From Fidelibacterota bacterium (GTDB lineage Bacteria > Fidelibacterota > Marinisomatia > Marinisomatales > S15-B10), in assembly GCA_002729175.1 (NCBI GenBank), contig PBTS01000039.1, positions 2,224 to 19,597 of the forward strand: DNA of 17,374 nt, read 5' to 3'. A program made the translations under genes and the position numbers. Shown here in pieces: positions 2,843 through 11,452 of this stretch. The notes beneath the pieces were generated by a model. That model did not search any database, was not told the origin of the DNA, and saw only the letters and a program-made list of their open reading frames with translations. How positions within the stretch are numbered: position 1 is the first letter of the stretch; every line of letters begins with the position of its first letter.

Positions 2843-5581
2843 ATGAATAACTTAACTATAAACAACCTTGTGTATTCATTTGGCAACGGGAAAGCCGATG
2901 GCCAAGCCGATATGGTGAATTTATTGGGTGGCAAAGGCGCCAATCTTGCGGAAATGACAAAATTGGGATTACCGGTTCCACCTGGGTTTACAATTACCAC
3001 AGAAGTTTGCACCCATTTTTATAACAACAACAAGTTTCCAAACCACCTTGAAGAAGAAGTGAAAAAGGCAATTTCGCGCATGGAATCCGATATGGGTATG
3101 CTATTTGGTGATGAGGAAAATCCTCTGCTCGTTTCAGTTCGGTCTGGTGCGCGAAAATCTATGCCCGGCATGATGGAAACGGTGTTGAATTTGGGGTTAA
3201 CAACAAAAACTATTCCCGGACTAATTCACAAAACAAAAAATGAACGCTTCGTTTACGATGCATACCGTCGGTTGATTATGATGTATTCGGATGTTGTAAT
3301 GGAAAAATCCGGTGGGATAGATCCAAAGGGAGAAAAAGGAATTAGACAACAACTTGAAGATATTTTAAGTATTTATAAAGCAAAAAAGAGATATCAATCA
3401 GACTTAGATATGAAAGGGAATGACTGGAAATATATTTCTACCGAATTCAAAAATTATATAGAAAAAAAGCTAAACAAACATTTCCCGGATGATCCATATG
3501 AACAACTGTGGGGAGGGATTCGGGCGGTTTTTCGAAGTTGGAGTGGCGCACGCGCGACACATTATCGTCGAATAGAAAACATACCCAACAATTGGGGAAC
3601 AGCGGTGAATGTTCAAGCGATGGTGTTTGGGAACACAGGAGATGCATCGGCCACAGGTGTTGCCTTCACAAGAAACCCAGCCACAGGCGAAAATAAATTT
3701 TATGGAGAATGGCTACAAAACGCCCAAGGAGAAGATGTTGTTGCCGGAGTTCGTACGCCACACCCTTTAAATGAAGCGACAAGAACAAAAGAATCCAAAC
3801 ACTTAAAGTCATTGGAATCCTTTATGCCCAAGGCTTATACCCAACTAAATGACATTAGAACAAGCCTAGAAACACATTATAGTGAGATGCAGGATATTGA
3901 ATTTACAATAGAAAACAATTTTCTATGGATGCTTCAAACGCGAACAGGAAAACGAACTGGGGTGGCTGCGATTCAAATGGCTGTAGATATGGTTACCGAT
4001 GGCATGATAACAAAAGAAGAGGCGATTTCCCGAATTAACCCAGAACAAATTGACGACCTGCTTCACCCAACATTAAATAAAGAAGAAGAAAAAAAAGCGG
4101 AGGTTATTGCCCGCGGGCTACCAGCCGGCCCAGGGGGAGGAATTGGCCAAATTGTTTTTACAGCAGACGAGGCAGAAAAACAAGCAATGGCAGGGAAGAA
4201 AGTGATTTTAGTTCGAGAAGAAACATCTCCAGAAGATGTTCATGGTATGCATGAATCAGAAGGAATTTTAACAGCCAAAGGTGGAATGACATCTCATGCA
4301 GCGCTTGTAGCTAGAGGTTGGGGGAAGTGTTGTATCGTTGGTTGTTCGGCCCTAAACATTGATTTATCTAAAAAAGAAATTACCATTGATGACAAAAAGC
4401 TATATGAGGGCGATTGGATTTCAATGAACGGCTCAAATGGAGCGGTATACAAAGGAAAGGTTGCTTTACAGACTGCAAATCCGGATTCTAATAAAACATA
4501 CCGTCAACTTATGATGTGGGCTGACAAGATTCGAACGCTAAAGATTCGAACAAACGCAGATAGCCCAGAGGACGCATTACAAGCAATTGCATTTGGAGCG
4601 GAGGGTATTGGATTGTGCCGCACGGAACATATGTTTTTTGATCCCCAAAGAGTGATGATAATGCGGAAAATGATTTTGGCGGAAAATGATTATAGTCGTC
4701 GAAAATTTGTTATGGAATTACTACCATATCAACGAAAGGACTTTATCGGTATCTTAAAAGCAATGGATGGAAAGCCGGCAACGATTCGTCTTCTTGACCC
4801 CCCACTCCACGAGTTTTTATCTTTAAACAGTTCGCAAATTAAAAAACTAGCTATAGAGTTAAATGTAATAACCCAAAAAATAAAAAACCGTATTTCTGAA
4901 CTTCATGAATTTAATCCCATGCTAGGGCATCGAGGATGTCGCTTAGGCATTGCTTACCCAGAAATCACCGAAATGCAAGCCCGCGCTATCTTTGAAGCAA
5001 CAGCAGAATTAACCGTAGCCGGCATAGAGGTATTTCCAGAAATAATGATTCCACTGGTTGGCACCCACACAGAGTTAAAAAACCAAGAGGCGCTGGTAAG
5101 AAACATTGCAGAAATAGTTAAAAAAGAACAGAAAACAGATTTTCATTATACGGTTGGAACAATGATTGAATTACCACGAGCTTGTTTAACCGCGAATGAA
5201 ATAGCAAAAAATGCAGAATTTTTTAGTTTTGGAACGAACGATTTAACACAAACAACCTATGGGTTTAGCCGAGATGATATCGGCGGGTTCTTGCCAAACT
5301 ATCTAAACGAAAACATTTTATCCCACGATCCATTTCAGAGTTTAGACCAAAATGGCGTGGGACAATTAATTACAATGGCCGTGGATAAGGGGAGAAGTGT
5401 TCGTAAAAATTTAAAAATAGGCATTTGTGGTGAACACGGCGGAGACCCAGCAAGTATTGATTTTTGTTATCGAAACGGCTTGGATTATGTTAGTTGTTCT
5501 CCATTTAGGGTTCCAATTGCTCGGCTAGCTGCCGCACAAGCAGTAATCAAAAAGAAAAGGTTTGACTCAAACCATAATTAA
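2843..5581 (+). CDS. ppdK: Pyruvate, phosphate dikinase
   Basis: LLGGKGANLAEM, PVPPGFTITT, LLVSVRSGA, phospho-His motif GGMTSHAALVARG, GIGLCRTEHMFF, FFSFGTNDLTQ and GICGEHGGDP. 912 aa; GAGGGG RBS at 2832-2837. Confidence 0.98.
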   Translation: MNNLTINNLVYSFGNGKADGQADMVNLLGGKGANLAEMTKLGLPVPPGFTITTEVCTHFYNNNKFPNHLEEEVKKAISRMESDMGMLFGDEENPLLVSVRSGARKSMPGMMETVLNLGLTTKTIPGLIHKTKNERFVYDAYRRLIMMYSDVVMEKSGGIDPKGEKGIRQQLEDILSIYKAKKRYQSDLDMKGNDWKYISTEFKNYIEKKLNKHFPDDPYEQLWGGIRAVFRSWSGARATHYRRIENIPNNWGTAVNVQAMVFGNTGDASATGVAFTRNPATGENKFYGEWLQNAQGEDVVAGVRTPHPLNEATRTKESKHLKSLESFMPKAYTQLNDIRTSLETHYSEMQDIEFTIENNFLWMLQTRTGKRTGVAAIQMAVDMVTDGMITKEEAISRINPEQIDDLLHPTLNKEEEKKAEVIARGLPAGPGGGIGQIVFTADEAEKQAMAGKKVILVREETSPEDVHGMHESEGILTAKGGMTSHAALVARGWGKCCIVGCSALNIDLSKKEITIDDKKLYEGDWISMNGSNGAVYKGKVALQTANPDSNKTYRQLMMWADKIRTLKIRTNADSPEDALQAIAFGAEGIGLCRTEHMFFDPQRVMIMRKMILAENDYSRRKFVMELLPYQRKDFIGILKAMDGKPATIRLLDPPLHEFLSLNSSQIKKLAIELNVITQKIKNRISELHEFNPMLGHRGCRLGIAYPEITEMQARAIFEATAELTVAGIEVFPEIMIPLVGTHTELKNQEALVRNIAEIVKKEQKTDFHYTVGTMIELPRACLTANEIAKNAEFFSFGTNDLTQTTYGFSRDDIGGFLPNYLNENILSHDPFQSLDQNGVGQLITMAVDKGRSVRKNLKIGICGEHGGDPASIDFCYRNGLDYVSCSPFRVPIARLAAAQAVIKKKRFDSNHN

Positions 5582-5591
5582 AACTTAGGTT
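5562..5591 (+). promoter_or_regulatory. Possible sigma70-type promoter for the asn leader/asnB transcript
   Basis: TTGACT (5562-5567), 18 nt spacer, TAGGTT (5586-5591). It would start transcription only a few nt before the leader ATG at 5602. Pattern match only. Confidence 0.3.
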
Positions 5592-5601
5592 TATTGACGG
5601 C

Positions 5602-5670
5602 ATGGGTTACACAATCAATAATAACAATAACAATAACGCCAATAACAATGGCGTAGGGGCTCTCGTGTAA
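5602..5670 (+). CDS. Putative asparagine-rich leader peptide MGYTINNNNNNNANNNGVGALV (22 aa, 10 Asn)
   Basis: ATG at 5602 and TAA at 5668-5670. Ten in-frame Asn codons use both AAT and AAC. Lies immediately upstream of a terminator and asnB. Confidence 0.85.
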   Translation: MGYTINNNNNNNANNNGVGALV

Positions 5671-5694
5671 CCTAACGAGTTAATTAAATATTTT

Positions 5695-5733
5695 AAAAGC
5701 CCCCAAAGTCGAAAGGTTTTGGGGGCTTTTTTT
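5695..5733 (+). terminator. Intrinsic terminator (candidate attenuator) upstream of asnB
   Basis: AAAAGCCCCCAAAGTC-GAAA-GGTTTTGGGGGC followed by T7: GC-rich stem with two G-U pairs, GNRA loop and U-tract, ending 24 nt before the asnB ATG. Confidence 0.9.
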
Positions 5734-5757
5734 ATTCATATAAATAAAGGAAAAACA

Positions 5758-7344
5758 ATGTGTGGAATTTTTGCCTATAAGGGCAACACATATAGGTGGA
5801 ATGATTTAAAACCCCACGTAGATAAAATACAATATAGGGGCCCAGATAATTCACACGAGAAACAGATCAATGCGAATACAATTTTTGCATTTCATCGGTT
5901 AGCAATAATAGGAACAAGTGAGGCTGGAGACCAACCCCTGTTTCACCCAGAAGATGGAGGCATTTCAATTGTCTGTAATGGAGAAATCTATAATTATGTA
6001 ATATTAGCGAAGAAATATGGAATTGATTTAAAAAGCGGATCTGACTGTGAAATAATTCTGCATTTATATAAACGGTTTGGTATTAAAAAAACGATAGAAT
6101 CCCTTGATGGCGTCTTTATGTTTGTGTTAAACGATCAAAACAAGCAGGAACTATTTGCTGGAAGAGATCCATTTGGTGTGAGGCCTGGGTTTGTAGGACG
6201 AAAGGGGCACGAGATTATGTTTGCATCAGAAGCAAAACCTCTCATTGGTTTGTGTGACAAAATCGATCAGTTTAGCCCGGGCCACTGGTGGCAGCTATCC
6301 ACAGATAAATTCTCCAAATATAATTTTAATAATGATATCGACTTAAACGAAACGAATGAATTAAGTATTCTTGAAGGAATCCGAGAAAAGTTGACCGATG
6401 CTGTTCAAAAAAGAATGATGGCCGAAAGAGAAATTGGATCACTGTTGTCTGGCGGGCTTGATTCAAGTTTAATTTCTGCGTTGGTGAACCAATTTCATAC
6501 TGGACCAACCTTAAAAACTTTTTCAATTGGTATGCCTGGAAGCATCGATTTAGATTATGCGCAAATTGTTGCAAACCACATAGGCACAGACCATCACCAG
6601 ATTCAAATATCAAAAGAAGCATTCTTAGATGCAATTGAAACGGTTATATATAATATAGAATCCTTTGATACCACGACAGTGCGAGCAAGCGTTGGTAACT
6701 ATCTTGTTTCAAAATATATTCGAGAAAACTCGGACTGTAAAGTTATTTTTAATGGTGATGGTAGCGATGAGGTCTGTGGTGGGTATGTATATATGAAAAA
6801 CGCACCGACGGAGAACGATTTTCAACTGGAATGCAATCGTCTCGTTGATGAAATTCATTGGTTTGATGTATTGAGATCCGATCGAAGCATAAGCTCAAAC
6901 GGACTAGAAGCGCGGACACCGTTTTTAGACAAAGCTTTTGTTCAATACTATTTATCCATCCCCGCTAAAATGAAAACATTTGATGGGAAGCTCCGATTGG
7001 AAAAATATTTATTACGAAAAGCATTCGACCAATCAGAATTGTTGCCGGAATCTGTATTATGGAGAAGAAAATGTGCATTCTCTGATGGTGTTAGTGCCAA
7101 AGACAATTCATGGCATCACGTAATCCAATCATTTGTAGATAGTAAAATTTCTGACGAGGAGTACAAAACAAAATCGAAAGCATATGTTCATTGTAAACCC
7201 ATTTTAAAAGAGAGCTATTATTACAGAAAAGTCTTCGAATCTATTTTTGGGAAGCAGGAAAAACTTATTCCGCATTTTTGGATGCCGAAATGGGTTGAAA
7301 CCAATGATCCATCTGCAAGAGAGATGACCGGTTACATAGAATAA
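5758..7344 (+). CDS. asnB: Asparagine synthase (glutamine-hydrolysing)
   Basis: True start is the ATG at 5758 (MCGIF, N-terminal nucleophile Cys), with AAAGGA RBS at 5746-5751. Motifs RGPD, FHRLAI, CNGEIYN, RDPFGVRP, LLSGGLDSS, GDGSDE and LEARTPFLD. Confidence 0.96.
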   Translation: MCGIFAYKGNTYRWNDLKPHVDKIQYRGPDNSHEKQINANTIFAFHRLAIIGTSEAGDQPLFHPEDGGISIVCNGEIYNYVILAKKYGIDLKSGSDCEIILHLYKRFGIKKTIESLDGVFMFVLNDQNKQELFAGRDPFGVRPGFVGRKGHEIMFASEAKPLIGLCDKIDQFSPGHWWQLSTDKFSKYNFNNDIDLNETNELSILEGIREKLTDAVQKRMMAEREIGSLLSGGLDSSLISALVNQFHTGPTLKTFSIGMPGSIDLDYAQIVANHIGTDHHQIQISKEAFLDAIETVIYNIESFDTTTVRASVGNYLVSKYIRENSDCKVIFNGDGSDEVCGGYVYMKNAPTENDFQLECNRLVDEIHWFDVLRSDRSISSNGLEARTPFLDKAFVQYYLSIPAKMKTFDGKLRLEKYLLRKAFDQSELLPESVLWRRKCAFSDGVSAKDNSWHHVIQSFVDSKISDEEYKTKSKAYVHCKPILKESYYYRKVFESIFGKQEKLIPHFWMPKWVETNDPSAREMTGYIE

Positions 7345-7407: not shown

Positions 7408-8340
7408 TTATTCGACGGTTTCTCCGCCAAGAAGATCTTCAAGTTTGAAGGCTCCATCACTCTCCATTTGTTTGGCAGACTGCACAATGGATTTTCTGGC
7501 ATTATCAACATCCCGCTTGGGGACCGCACCGGCAACAGGTTCGTACATTGCCTGTTTCTTTTTAGGCAACACACCAATTACTCTATCGGAAATTAATTGA
7601 TCCATTCCTTTTAGAGCCATAGCCACTGTATCCAAATCCACCGCATTCATGAGGTCTCGCAGTAGGTTGTCCGGAAAGATTTCAAAAATTGTTTCAAATG
7701 TTATGCGGTATTTTTTTACCTCTTCGGCGAGTTCCGGGTTTTCTTGTTCGAGATTAGTCATGAACATTTCTTCTTCTTCAGGATCCATCGAACCCAATAT
7801 ATCAGCTAAATCTTTACCGCCACCCCTAGAAAAAGCCACCGTTTTGGGAAGCTGTTTTGCTTTTTTCTGAAGTTTATTTGCAATTTGCACAACGGCTTCG
7901 AGAGGTACATCATTTAGGTTGCCAATACTTAAAAGAACCTGACCTTTTTCTTCTTCACCAATACGGCTTAATACTTTCATACGTTTTTCAGCAGAAAGCT
8001 GTGCGATTGAAATTGCGATTACTCGAGGTGATTCCGTAATTAACATTGCAATAATTTGTTCATCGGTTAAGTCATCTAAAAACGCGAAGGGTTTCTTGGG
8101 TTCATCAGACTCTTCATTTCCTTGAAATTTTTCACTGACAAAAGAAAAATAAAATTCTTCCATCACCTGTTTTTTTACAGAAAAAGCAACATTTTCTACA
8201 TCGCGCATGGCCGCTCGAATTTTTCGAACTTCTGTTTTGTCTAAACTCTTAACTAGGTTTAATGCGAGGCTTTCTCCAAGTACGGAAAACAGGATGGCCA
8301 CTTTTTGAAGGCCCGAAAGTTTGTTATAATCTGAAATCAT
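7408..8340 (-). CDS. fliG: FliG-like rotor protein (divergent; N, M and C domains)
   Basis: LSGLQKVAILFSVLG (FliG-N), PFAFL...ESPRVIA (EHPQ position), GG linker RGGGKDLADIL, ITFETI (MFxF position), VAMALKG and the C-terminal VPKRDVDNARKSIV. Confidence 0.85.
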   Translation of the reverse strand: MISDYNKLSGLQKVAILFSVLGESLALNLVKSLDKTEVRKIRAAMRDVENVAFSVKKQVMEEFYFSFVSEKFQGNEESDEPKKPFAFLDDLTDEQIIAMLITESPRVIAISIAQLSAEKRMKVLSRIGEEEKGQVLLSIGNLNDVPLEAVVQIANKLQKKAKQLPKTVAFSRGGGKDLADILGSMDPEEEEMFMTNLEQENPELAEEVKKYRITFETIFEIFPDNLLRDLMNAVDLDTVAMALKGMDQLISDRVIGVLPKKKQAMYEPVAGAVPKRDVDNARKSIVQSAKQMESDGAFKLEDLLGGETVE

Positions 8341-8349
8341 AATTGCCTC

Positions 8350-9855
8350 TTACTTTTTCTTTTTTTTCTTCTTCTTTTTGCCGCCACCATCATCTTCTGG
8401 CGTTTCCTGCGCTGTTGGCTCTGGTTCTGGCGGCGCTTCTTCCAAAATCCAATCCTTTACTATTTTTGAAGCTGCTTGTGGTTGACCAACGCTCATGGAC
8501 ACAACAGCTTGTTTCATATCGTTAACCTCACTTTGAAGTACGCCAATGTCTTCAATTGTTGTTGGTTTTGGTGTGGCGCGGGTTTGTTGTTCCTCAGAAA
8601 CGCTTACTGTTTCATCTTTTTTTTTAGGTTTTGGAGGATAGACCATCCAGGGTGGTGGCGGTGGCATTTGTTGCTTTGGTTTGTTCATTAAAACAAAAAC
8701 AAGAACAACCACGAGAACAATAACAAGCGCGCCAAGAATTGAAACAAAAACAATCATTCCAGTGTTGCTACCGCCAGAACGAGCTTGATTATCTAAATCG
8801 CTTTGCACCTGATCTAACATGGATAGTTTTTCAGCAATTTGGGAATCAAGGTTGGCTTTTTCTTGTAGTTTTTGTTGAACAGATGATTTGGCCTCAATGG
8901 ATGCAGAATCTGTTAATCCTGCGGTTCCAAGGAAAGCTTTTAAGTTTTGAATCTCTTCGTTGATAGATTGGAGACGTATAGAATCCTGTTTGAGTATAGA
9001 TTGTTTTTCCTGATCATAAGATCGATCTCTGGCGACCGATTCAAATTCAGCAAGCTTTGACTGAAAATAAAGACGATCTTCCTGACGTCGACCCTCTTCT
9101 GTTTCTTTATAGTTTTCAAGCTCCTGTTTCCAATCAACTTCTCCCAAACGCTCTCTTTGACTTTCAAGAGATTCAAGCTTTTCAGCAATCGTTTTTAGCA
9201 GAACCTGTTCAGCGGATTTTTCATCCCGCCGTTCTTTAAAACTGGCCGTCATAATGCTGAGCACATCTCCCCTTGGTCTATTAAAACGGGAAGCAACCAT
9301 AACAACCTGGCGGATATTTTCAATTAGTTCTGGCGCGGCCCCCTCTTGAAGAATAATACTGATTTCCATATTTCTAACACTGGCCATTGCCGATCTTTTT
9401 TCAATTTGTGTACGAGATACGACATTATTCTCTGGGGGAGAACCATCCATAGTGCTTATGTTTTCTTCGTTGTCGTTCGCCGACGTAGTTGGGGGAGTTT
9501 CTGCGGTAAAATCAAAACCTGGGATTGGTAGTCCGACACTACCGCGACTGGGCACTTCTCCATCATTTAAAAATCCTTCAGCCGCTTTTAGCGATTCAAG
9601 ATTAGATTCGCCCCCACGTGGCGAAAAAGTGGTTTGACTTTCAAACGCACTGCTGATTTCTAAATCAACACTCACATCAACAACGTACTTACGGTTGTCG
9701 ATTACTTTTTCAAGCGCACCGGCAATTCTCTTTCTCAAATCATTCTCAATCATGAGTTTTTGCGCCAAATACCCACTCGATTGGGCAAAGCCTATGTTTA
9801 AAATAAATCCGACTATGAGGGCAAAAAACAATGCCCCATTTCTCCGCTTAATCAT
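8350..9855 (-). CDS. FliF-like ring protein: signal/TM, RBM3 (YscJ/FliF C-terminal) domain, long coiled coil, TM helix, FliG-binding tail
   Basis: IENDLRKRIAGALEKVI...VVDVSVDL and VRNMEISIIL...IENIRQVVMVASRFNRPRGDVLSIMTASF match the two halves of FliF RBM3. QPQAASKIVKDWI matches the FliF C-terminal P..A..I..W motif. The ATG at 9855 is preferred over 9873 because AAGGGAG precedes it. Confidence 0.7.
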   Translation of the reverse strand: MIKRRNGALFFALIVGFILNIGFAQSSGYLAQKLMIENDLRKRIAGALEKVIDNRKYVVDVSVDLEISSAFESQTTFSPRGGESNLESLKAAEGFLNDGEVPSRGSVGLPIPGFDFTAETPPTTSANDNEENISTMDGSPPENNVVSRTQIEKRSAMASVRNMEISIILQEGAAPELIENIRQVVMVASRFNRPRGDVLSIMTASFKERRDEKSAEQVLLKTIAEKLESLESQRERLGEVDWKQELENYKETEEGRRQEDRLYFQSKLAEFESVARDRSYDQEKQSILKQDSIRLQSINEEIQNLKAFLGTAGLTDSASIEAKSSVQQKLQEKANLDSQIAEKLSMLDQVQSDLDNQARSGGSNTGMIVFVSILGALVIVLVVVLVFVLMNKPKQQMPPPPPWMVYPPKPKKKDETVSVSEEQQTRATPKPTTIEDIGVLQSEVNDMKQAVVSMSVGQPQAASKIVKDWILEEAPPEPEPTAQETPEDDGGGKKKKKKKKK

Positions 9856-9881
9856 ATTGACTCCCTTATTCATATGAATTT

Positions 9882-10676
9882 TTAATTATCCCCGGTATTT
9901 TTTGTACTAGATTCAGATCTTCCAACCGGCCCACCGCGCGGTGCCAAAAACGTGATTTCAACACGCCGGTTTCGAGATTTTTGCTGAGGGTTTGAATTGT
10001 ATTTTTGAACCAAATCCGAAGAAAGCAACTCTGTGTTTTTCCTGTCTCTTGGTACAAACTCTCCATACCCAACGGCTTCCAACCGGGTCGGGTCTACACC
10101 TAACGTGATCATTTGTCTAACGACCGCCGCTGCTCGCGCACCGGACAACTCCCAATTGCTTGGGTATTTTACTTGAAGCGCCTTTGGCAATTGGTCGCTA
10201 TCTGTGTGACCTTCAACAGCAATTTGAAAATAAGATTTCTCAACAGTTGGGATTATTTTTTTTAAAATATCAAGGAACTCCGGTTTTGTTTCTGCCGATC
10301 CAGAGCGAAAACTGATATCAGATGAAATTCCAATGGTAACACCCTTTGGACTGGTTGTAACCTCAACGGGCTTTTCTCCAGTTTTAGGATCAACTGCCAT
10401 TTCTTCAACCATTTTTTGAGCTTCTTTCTGAATGTCTCCGAGTGACATTGCTTGATTTTCAATCTCTTTTTTCTTCCCAACCGATTTACCCATTCCATCG
10501 GCCATATTTTGTAGTTTTACTGGATCGATGGTTGAGATAGCAGCCAATAATACGAAAAAAGCAAAAAGAAGGGTCATCATGTCAGCAAAAGTACCAAACC
10601 ATCCAGGCAGGCCCTCTTCAACCATCCCCATTCCTTTTCGAATGAACTGTTTTTTTTCTTGAGCTGTGGCAGCCAT
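9882..10676 (-). CDS. motB: Stator B subunit, MotB/PomB-like, with OmpA-like peptidoglycan-binding domain
   Basis: PGWFGTFADMMTLLFAFFVLL with the essential Asp; VEGHTD, YPSNWELSGARAAAV, AVGYGE and RNRRVEI. Confidence 0.93.
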   Translation of the reverse strand: MAATAQEKKQFIRKGMGMVEEGLPGWFGTFADMMTLLFAFFVLLAAISTIDPVKLQNMADGMGKSVGKKKEIENQAMSLGDIQKEAQKMVEEMAVDPKTGEKPVEVTTSPKGVTIGISSDISFRSGSAETKPEFLDILKKIIPTVEKSYFQIAVEGHTDSDQLPKALQVKYPSNWELSGARAAAVVRQMITLGVDPTRLEAVGYGEFVPRDRKNTELLSSDLVQKYNSNPQQKSRNRRVEITFLAPRGGPVGRSESSTKNTGDN

Positions 10677-10681
10677 TTAAT

Positions 10682-11452
10682 TTACTCTGCGTCTTTTTTC
10701 CACTCTTTTGGTGGGATGAATGAATTGAGTTTTTCACGAACAATAATGGGATGTTTTTTCTGATGAATTAACCGGGCAGCTTCAACTTGCAAGCTTTGTA
10801 TTGTACTGGAAAAAGATATTCGTGTTTTAATCTTATCCGCCATAGGGAGAAAAAATAAATTGGCGAGAACAGCACCATAAAAAGTTGTAATAAGTGCAGC
10901 AGACATACCCGCACCAAGAGTATCCGTTCCCCCCTCACCAAAGCCGGACAACATAACCACAAGCCCTATTAATGTTCCAACCATACCCCACGCCGGCGCC
11001 ATCGTGCCCATAGATTTGAACAATCCAGCTTGTGTGCTTTCTCTTAACTCTCGGTATTCAATTCGAGTGTTTAAAATTTCAGTAACTTCATCTAATGAAT
11101 ATCCGTCAATCACCATTTGGGCACCATCTCGAAAGAAAAAACTTTTAATGTTTCCAATGTGGTTTTCTAAATCAGCAGTACCTTTACGCGCCACCTCGGA
11201 TGCCTCAACCGCCTCATCGACAATACTACCGAGAGTATCTTTATCACCTTTAAAAACTGCACCCATAGCCGCACCAAGCTGAAGCACATCTTTTAACGGG
11301 AAGGCAACAGAAACAGACGCAATCATTCCACCCATTACAATACCAAGACTCGAAGCCGATCCAAACATCCCTAAATTTGGTGTCATTAAAAAAATACTGC
11401 CAACAATGGCTCCCATTCCTAATATGATTCCTACAAGAGTTGCAATATCCAT
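10682..11452 (-). CDS. motA: Stator A subunit, MotA/PomA-like
   Basis: MDIATLVG start, GIVMGG, ARKG...LE, APAWGMVGTLIGLVVML, GMSAALITTFYGAVLANLFFLPMADK and HPIIVREKL; 256 aa. Confidence 0.93.
   Translation of the reverse strand: MDIATLVGIILGMGAIVGSIFLMTPNLGMFGSASSLGIVMGGMIASVSVAFPLKDVLQLGAAMGAVFKGDKDTLGSIVDEAVEASEVARKGTADLENHIGNIKSFFFRDGAQMVIDGYSLDEVTEILNTRIEYRELRESTQAGLFKSMGTMAPAWGMVGTLIGLVVMLSGFGEGGTDTLGAGMSAALITTFYGAVLANLFFLPMADKIKTRISFSSTIQSLQVEAARLIHQKKHPIIVREKLNSFIPPKEWKKDAE

Follow-up and report, generated by a model that had tools for sequence, protein, structure and literature searches.

The window analysed here, a stretch of 17,374 nt, harbours ppdK and asnB separated by a gap of 176 nt, within which a short Asn-rich open reading frame (ORF) is followed by a predicted intrinsic terminator. 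The features of this region are as follows.

2843–5581: ppdK, ending 176 nt before the asnB ATG at 5758.
5562–5591, + strand: predicted sigma70-type promoter (TTGACT at 5562–5567, an 18-nt spacer and TAGGTT at 5586–5591).
5602–5670, + strand: leader ORF of 22 codons, 10 of them Asn (peptide MGYTINNNNNNNANNNGVGALV), with no SD-like sequence 5′ of its ATG.
5617–5649, + strand: regulatory codons, that is, seven Asn (5617–5637), one Ala and three Asn (5641–5649).
5604–5673, + strand: P1, a predicted protector helix that pairs GGGUUACAC (5604–5612) with GUGUAACCU (5665–5673) and excludes P3.
5636–5654, + strand: hairpin P2 inside the ORF, ACGCCA (5636–5641) with UGGCGU (5649–5654).
5656–5661, + strand: the G-run GGGGCU, predicted 5′ strand of the antiterminator, pairing with 5698–5703.
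5662–5679, + strand: inner helix P3, CUCGU (5662–5666) with ACGAG (5675–5679), which holds the stop codon in its loop and stacks on the antiterminator.
5695–5733, + strand: predicted intrinsic terminator, a 16-pair hairpin (5695–5730; 7 G-C pairs) with a U-tract (5727–5733), −22.8 kcal mol−1.
5746–7344, + strand: SD-like AAAGGAA (5746–5752) and asnB (ATG at 5758), encoding a glutamine-hydrolysing asparagine synthase B of 528 aa.

The asnB product scored above the NCBIfam equivalog cut-off for asparagine synthase B (NF006949, 503.7 versus 499) and above the cut-off of TIGR01536 (374.1 versus 267.1), and contains the domains Asn_synthase and GATase_7, which bears out the gene assignment of the original prediction. 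The leader ORF has the layout MGYTI-N7-A-N3-GVGALV-stop, with its Asn codons a mixture of AAT and AAC. This ORF, the hairpin plus U-tract of the predicted terminator, and the two complementary pairs of the proposed antiterminator (GGGGCT with AGCCCC at 5698–5703, and CTCGT with ACGAG) were each found at the coordinates originally given, the pairs being fully complementary, while P1, which pairs codons 1–4 with the stop region, had been missed.

The closest asnB orthologues are those of Ca. Neomarinimicrobiota/Marinisomatota. The whole window is 98% identical to genome G218 and 79% identical to G201 (genus g10, family f5), yet just 62–68% identical, over the longer matches, to the three congeners of the source assembly (G000), from which this asnB is absent. 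Moreover, the GC content of the contig is 40.8%, as compared with an assembly median of 45.9% (45.8% overall), 8 of the 87 contigs of G000 (131 kb) are below 42% GC, and contamination of G000 is 7.1%. The contig was therefore judged as probably mis-binned into G000, and genome context was taken from genus g10 and its relatives instead. A gatB gene of G000 was likewise set aside as probably foreign to the true host's genome, since the contig is 98% identical to a genome of another family.

Downstream, on the − strand and converging on asnB, a compact cluster of fliG-like, fliF-C-like, motB and motA genes follows genes for TPR proteins (7408–11452). The cluster diverges from canonical flagellar genes (FliG at 116 bits versus a cut-off of 227), is matched in G001–G003 and thus shared across families, and is accompanied by no other flagellar genes inside the 17,374 nt; it could encode a non-flagellar motor.

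The frequency of such Asn runs by chance was estimated in the 1,833,259-base assembly, which is GC-richer than the window's contig (45.8 versus 40.8%). With all frames of both strands considered, the run was the sole one of at least five AAY triplets, and among 25,648 ATG-to-stop stretches of 10–40 codons just one, the leader, has 10 Asn codons. In five relatives' genomes the five-triplet pattern gave 24 overlapping matches at 14 places, and the leader-terminator layout was absent at all 11 of those that are not at asnB. Thus, short runs arise by chance, while the leader-terminator arrangement does not. The length of the Asn run is 7, 9 and 13 in near-identical strains (the window, L025 and L099, respectively); as these changes occur in repeat units, they are not independent evidence of selection on the frame. 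Separately, genome G161 has two copies of a ~50-nt motif that combines an AAY run with a small hairpin (L210:960–1020 on C6 and L229:1487–1545 on C16), one between divergent cytochrome-c-like genes and one between guaA and glmS; the motif is not a leader of the asnB type.

The original prediction had proposed a survey of asnB upstream regions among relatives, and the frame and its Asn codons proved to be conserved there. Loci were collected from genome contigs, a 401-genome sample of the phylum (58 hits) and metagenome contigs. The asnB start was present in 150 of the 178 loci; four were too short, and the rest gave 102 distinct upstream regions. An ATG-initiated ORF with at least four Asn in ten codons, followed by a terminator, was present in 63 of the 102 in addition to the window, with ORF, G-run and terminator kept, although related sequences are not independent in these counts. 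The filter excluded the remaining 39, two of which (L144 and L150) have the layout without an ATG. By GTDB species genomes, the leader was found in 37 of the 54 examined (out of 57), representing nine genera in four Marinisomatota families, and was missing in genera g25, g29, g34, g41, g44, g72 and g73. A FastTree tree of the 102 proteins placed nine changes of leader state, a pattern that fits repeated loss. In L040 and L154, sisters of the leader-bearing L144 and L150, decay has affected Asn run, G-run and terminator alike; the L040/L085/L154 lineage appears to have lost its attenuator recently, and in the two sisters translation may start at TTG. L039 and L088 carry ~165 extra bases between terminator and asnB, which puts their leaders at −329 to −254 rather than at the usual ~−160 to −87.

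The gene upstream of the leader varies: it is ppdK in only 13 of the 63 leader-bearing loci and lies on the opposite strand in 26, and in L187 ppdK adjoins asnB with the leader absent. Thus, the leader belongs to asnB and not to the upstream gene. In L034 a SAM riboswitch (RF00162, 75.7 bits; 1486–1601, − strand) is located directly upstream of the Asn leader and faces away from asnB. Outside Marinisomatota, the leader was found in none of 22 loci (six asnB relatives found among 301 sampled genomes of the phylum to which G403 belongs, 15 loci from a viral collection and E. coli asnB), nor was the element matched in any plasmid. Contigs of the viral collection (L247–L261) encode asnB relatives at 39–59% identity, without an Asn leader, that are close kin of the Marinisomatota type.

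After removal of one leader with an N and merging of identical cores, 55 distinct leaders were obtained, which fall into two groups: 32 of the window type (22–37 codons) and 23 of a second type (27–38 codons), in which the G-run is 2 nt farther from the stop. The stop codon is kept at a fixed place as TAA (39 of 64) or TAG (25 of 64). The codon at the G-run is GGG in all 55 leaders, as compared with 336 of the 1878 Gly codons (17.9%) in their asnB genes. The N-terminal part of the peptide varies freely in length and sequence (22–38 codons), whereas its C-terminal residues track the RNA helices. As for the two other frames, 11 of 55 leaders have a start codon followed by an open Ile/Thr-rich frame, and none has the third frame open; the overlapping Ile/Thr-rich ORF at 5594–5656 was accordingly rejected. 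These sequence patterns argue that the leader is under selection as an ORF. A search of three leader peptides against the named leader peptides of NCBIfam returned no family at E up to 10, a weak test for peptides this short.

A transcription start downstream of 5602, which the original prediction had raised as evidence against itself, is not what the sequences suggest. The predicted leader promoter overlaps the end of ppdK and stops 10 nt 5′ of the leader ATG, and a comparable site (TTG, 16–18 nt, TAnnnT) is present at a fixed distance 5′ of the ATG in 39 of 55 leaders, versus 17 of 837 control windows. Its distance to the ATG is 5 nt in 17 leaders and 9–11 nt in 22, the window among them. 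An SD-like 4-mer precedes the leader ATG in 3 of 55 cases, as compared with 45 of 55 for asnB. Given a promoter-like site this close to the ATG and the lack of an SD, the leader is predicted to be leaderless or nearly so, with a 5′ UTR just a few nucleotides long. Another promoter-like sequence inside the ORF (TTGACG-17-AATAAT, 5594–5622) matches at 10 of 12 positions, but was rejected as the main start, as it recurs in only 8 of 55 leaders (four of which score at least 9). Parts of the stretch are found in 20 of the 23 metatranscriptome runs listed, all as contigs, which cannot show starts, ends or strand; in the four runs compared with the window no contig spans the terminator, and such contigs are uninformative on ends and expression.

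The 171-nt leader folded with a z of −5.4 relative to 200 shuffles. Covariation was assessed in an alignment (A3) of 25 window-type leaders, which omits seven of the 32 (L038, L042, L142, L181, L184, L185 and L186) on grounds of helix register or redundancy; these seven were included in a swap test that set each leader's own partner strand against swapped ones. The 23 second-type leaders (A4) are 82% identical, and all pair counts are from A3 only. Jointly, P2, P3 and the terminator had 85.8% of their cells paired and 15 of 26 pairs changed on both sides, values equalled by none of 500 shuffles, although relatedness inflates such scores; slid controls paired at 36–50%, versus 86%. Individually, the pairs changed on both sides were 4 of 6 in P2 (94% of cells paired), 4 of 6 in P3 (78%) and 7 of 14 in the terminator. 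P2 is confined to window-type leaders and is a candidate pause hairpin or protector sub-helix. For P3, the swap test favoured the own partner in all 32 window-type leaders and in 12 of the 23 of the second type; for P1, the own partner exceeded the group median in 28 of 32 and 9 of 23, respectively, and compensatory examples exist. When the untranslated window RNA was folded stepwise, P1 had a probability of 1.0 at 3′ ends from 5674 to 5700, that is, before the C-run exists, after which the antiterminator prevailed at equilibrium until the terminator was complete. This modelled behaviour fits that of a protector.

The outer helix of the antiterminator behaves differently. With 75.5% of its cells paired, it had a covariation score of 0.097, which did not stand out from shuffles, 222 of 500 of which scored at least as much, and in the swap test own partners were no better than swapped ones (31 of 55). 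Its core of three G-C pairs is kept in 75 of 75 cells, with single compensatory cases in L041 and L185. As far as alignments can tell, support for the outer helix is therefore the invariance of the G-run and the C-run, not covariation. Of the antiterminator originally proposed, the inner helix stands through its covariation and the invariant GGG codon agrees with it, whereas the outer helix is invariant without covarying. The RNAalifold consensus of the 25 leaders holds P2 and the terminator but neither P3 nor the antiterminator. The 5′ arm of the terminator shares AGCCCC with the antiterminator, while the SD-like sequence of asnB comes after the terminator and stays mostly unpaired in the predicted fold.

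The effect of a ribosome was modelled in the 55 leaders by covering the RNA up to 9 nt from the first A-site base, codon by codon, and folding the remainder. The antiterminator was predicted in 52–54 of 55 leaders for each codon up to −8 from the stop (54 at −8), then in 28 at −7 and in one at −6. The share of Asn is 0.95, 0.67 and 0.04 at codons −9, −8 and −7, respectively. Thus, the Asn codons end where the modelled ribosome begins to cover the G-run. In the window itself, the antiterminator value is 0.8–1.0 through the last Asn codon and falls to 0.0 one codon later, at which point the stop is still five codons away and the ribosome already masks the G-run. Constrained folding hence agrees with the originally proposed logic, in which stalling frees the G-run and translation to the stop masks it, except that masking begins five codons before the stop. 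The assumed footprint shifts the switch by one codon per 3 nt: at 12 or 15 nt the edge moves one or two codons upstream, and at 15 nt the last Asn codons cease to free the G-run, so that 9–12 nt fits.

The likeness to the trp, his, thr and leu attenuators invoked in the original prediction was supported by the same masking of E. coli leaders, in which thrL, leuL, pheL and trpL behaved alike: the drop came directly after the regulatory codons in thrL and trpL, three codons past them in leuL and at the stop in pheL, while hisL was modelled poorly. In untranslated RNA the antiterminator was predicted in most leaders (median 0.79), which, like the weakness of P1 in the second leader type, counts against the model. 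At equilibrium, the terminator of the window has a probability of ~0.97–1.0 at every ribosome position; with the equilibrium on the side of the terminator, a switch could only work kinetically, and read-through would need kinetic trapping. The same dominance was obtained for E. coli thr, leu, trp and his (but not phe), and in this modelling it is no special weakness of the leader described here.

A leader of this kind reports free asparagine only where tRNA-Asn is charged directly. In 51 of the 58 asnB-bearing genomes asnS scored over its cut-off. Besides G000, gatB was found in one of 57 asnB genomes (G277, which has no leader), whereas 9 of 13 hand-picked genomes that lack this asnB have it; in these counts kin are not independent and genomes are incomplete. 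In the Marinisomatota genomes searched, this type of asnB and gatB are thus nearly mutually exclusive, which suggests alternative routes to Asn-tRNA across the phylum. In the five close relatives, asnA was found in none and glnS in all, and AsnB appears, from gene content, to be the cells' route to asparagine. With direct charging of tRNA-Asn in the hosts, what the leader reads would follow the level of free asparagine, the product of AsnB.

As far as a sequence can test, the layout agrees with classical leader-peptide attenuation, and we propose, with a probability of about 0.88, that it is a ribosome-mediated transcription attenuator that senses asparagine via the charging of Asn-tRNA and opens asnB only when asparagine is scarce. 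Transcription would begin ~3–5 nt 5′ of the leader's start codon (right at the ATG in leaders of the second type), and a ribosome would load on the leader without an SD. P1 and P2 would fold behind the polymerase, probably acting as protector and pause until melted by the ribosome. When Asn-tRNA is low, the ribosome would stall on the Asn codons, covering the 5′ strand of P1 or sitting between its strands, and leave the G-run free, so that P3 and then the pairing of G-run with C-run could form before the 3′ arm of the terminator emerges, resulting in read-through. When Asn-tRNA is ample, the ribosome would pass the last Asn codon and mask the G-run, allowing the terminator to form. In RNA that is untranslated or released by the ribosome, P1 would form first and block P3, and termination would probably be favoured.

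It is quite improbable that the same attenuator answers to another signal, such as a general slowing of translation, the status of nitrogen or glutamine, or the queuosine modification of tRNA-Asn. In favour of this reading, the outcome would be the same whatever slows the ribosome on AAY codons, AsnB uses glutamine, and tRNA-Asn carries queuosine in many bacteria. However, Asn accounts for 348 of the 550 codons at −17 to −8 of the stop in the 55 leaders, while the other residues read by queuosine-bearing tRNAs are rare there (Asp 9, Tyr 2, His 0). Moreover, the AAT:AAC ratio of the leaders (264:84) is like that of the asnB coding sequences (997:287), and the controlled gene makes asparagine in hosts that lack GatB. 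Still less probable is a switch that works without translation (a riboswitch, a T-box or a protein-bound leader) or a nascent-chain arrest peptide, in which the Asn run would be a spacer or arrest motif. The absence of an SD before the leader ATG in 52 of 55 cases and the several conserved helices are in favour of an untranslated switch, but the window and six relatives matched no Rfam family at gathering score and no T-box, the Asn frame alone is consistently open with its stop kept as TAA or TAG, and the ATG keeps its distance from the promoter-like site. Also against this reading, the peptide varies freely at the N terminus and follows the RNA helices at the C terminus.

The least probable reading is that there is no attenuation at all: the hairpin would be the terminator of ppdK, the AAY run a microsatellite, and asnB driven from the internal promoter or another start. 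No other + strand terminator was found between ppdK and the hairpin, the internal promoter-like site is a good match, and the run varies by 6-nt units in near-identical strains, all of which count in its favour. Yet transcripts begun internally near 5629 would still run into the terminator, and the internal site is rare among the leaders. The hairpin as a mere ppdK terminator was rejected: of the 63 loci that keep the element, 50 have a gene other than ppdK before it and 26 an upstream gene facing away, and L187 lacks it despite ppdK. Furthermore, a microsatellite leaves the fixed ATG, the stop, the GGG codon and the covarying helices unexplained.

Compared with known systems, the attenuator proposed here has the classical composition of a short ORF with codons of the end product, a putative protector, an antiterminator and a terminator before a biosynthetic gene, as outlined in PMC1183508 and PMC2659441. 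In its end-product codon run, antiterminator and terminator, and in its putative protector, it is like thrL, hisL, pheL, leuL, trpL and ilvL. It differs from the enterobacterial leaders (RF00506, RF00514 and RF01859) in its regulatory amino acid, Asn, and its uncultured Marinisomatota host, in an ATG that has no SD and is located at or a few nucleotides from the predicted 5′ end, in the position of the stop codon within the loop of the antiterminator's inner helix, and in a predicted protector that joins the start and stop regions. The window leader scored below the gathering thresholds of His_leader (28.3/49 bits), Phe_leader (26.9/55) and Thr_leader (17.5/55), and no Rfam amino-acid leader family reached gathering score in six relatives. 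T-boxes were likewise absent from the 41 Rfam matches of the window at E up to 10 and from the matches at gathering score in six related loci, and E. coli asnB has no such leader. AsnC, the DNA-binding regulator of E. coli asnA, shares control of an asparagine-related gene by the status of Asn or tRNA-Asn, but differs in being a DNA-binding protein. Asn T-box riboswitches control asparagine-related genes, according to PMC2494555, yet T-boxes act through direct binding of uncharged tRNA and independently of translation, on which the Asn leader would depend.

In mycobacteria, leaderless short ORFs with a polycysteine run sense charged tRNA through homopolymeric codons and act on translation via a long duplex over the downstream start region, as described by Canestrari et al. 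(bioRxiv 10.1101/834739). The Asn leader resembles them in its codon run and, in 17 leaders, in a short ORF predicted to be leaderless, but differs in its amino acid and in its Rho-independent terminator as output, sequestration of the ribosome-binding site not being supported here. Leader attenuators outside Proteobacteria include Listeria Rli60 (PMC5864092), the Streptococcus leuA leader (PMC5314783) and the His leaders of Bacillus hisS/hisZ (PMC2965389), which, as far as the excerpts of these papers go, follow the same logic without sequence similarity to the enterobacterial leaders, for other amino acids and in other phyla; an Asn leader is not mentioned in those excerpts. In agreement with the original prediction, which knew of no characterised Asn leader-peptide attenuator, none was found in Rfam 15 or in the literature searched, mostly partial texts and exclusive of supplementary uORF tables and closed-access papers. 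The gene lists of Vitreschak 2004 and Lopatovskaya 2010 reportedly contain no asn genes.

The mechanism itself is thus a textbook one, and what would be new is the asparagine specificity together with the unusual, predicted leaderless or near-leaderless start. On balance, we think it probable that this is the first Asn-specific leader-peptide transcription attenuator, with a leaderless or near-leaderless sensor ORF and a protector made from the start and stop regions, in lineages that are without GatCAB and dependent on AsnB, and that the length of the Asn run could tune its sensitivity. Such an element would raise the question of how ribosome and polymerase become coupled early enough on an SD-less leader at the very 5′ end of an RNA. 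If this proposal is true, it would provide a compact asparagine sensor of ~170 nt, asparagine would become one of the few amino acids that classical leader-peptide attenuators sense, and the mechanism would reach an abundant, uncultured marine phylum.
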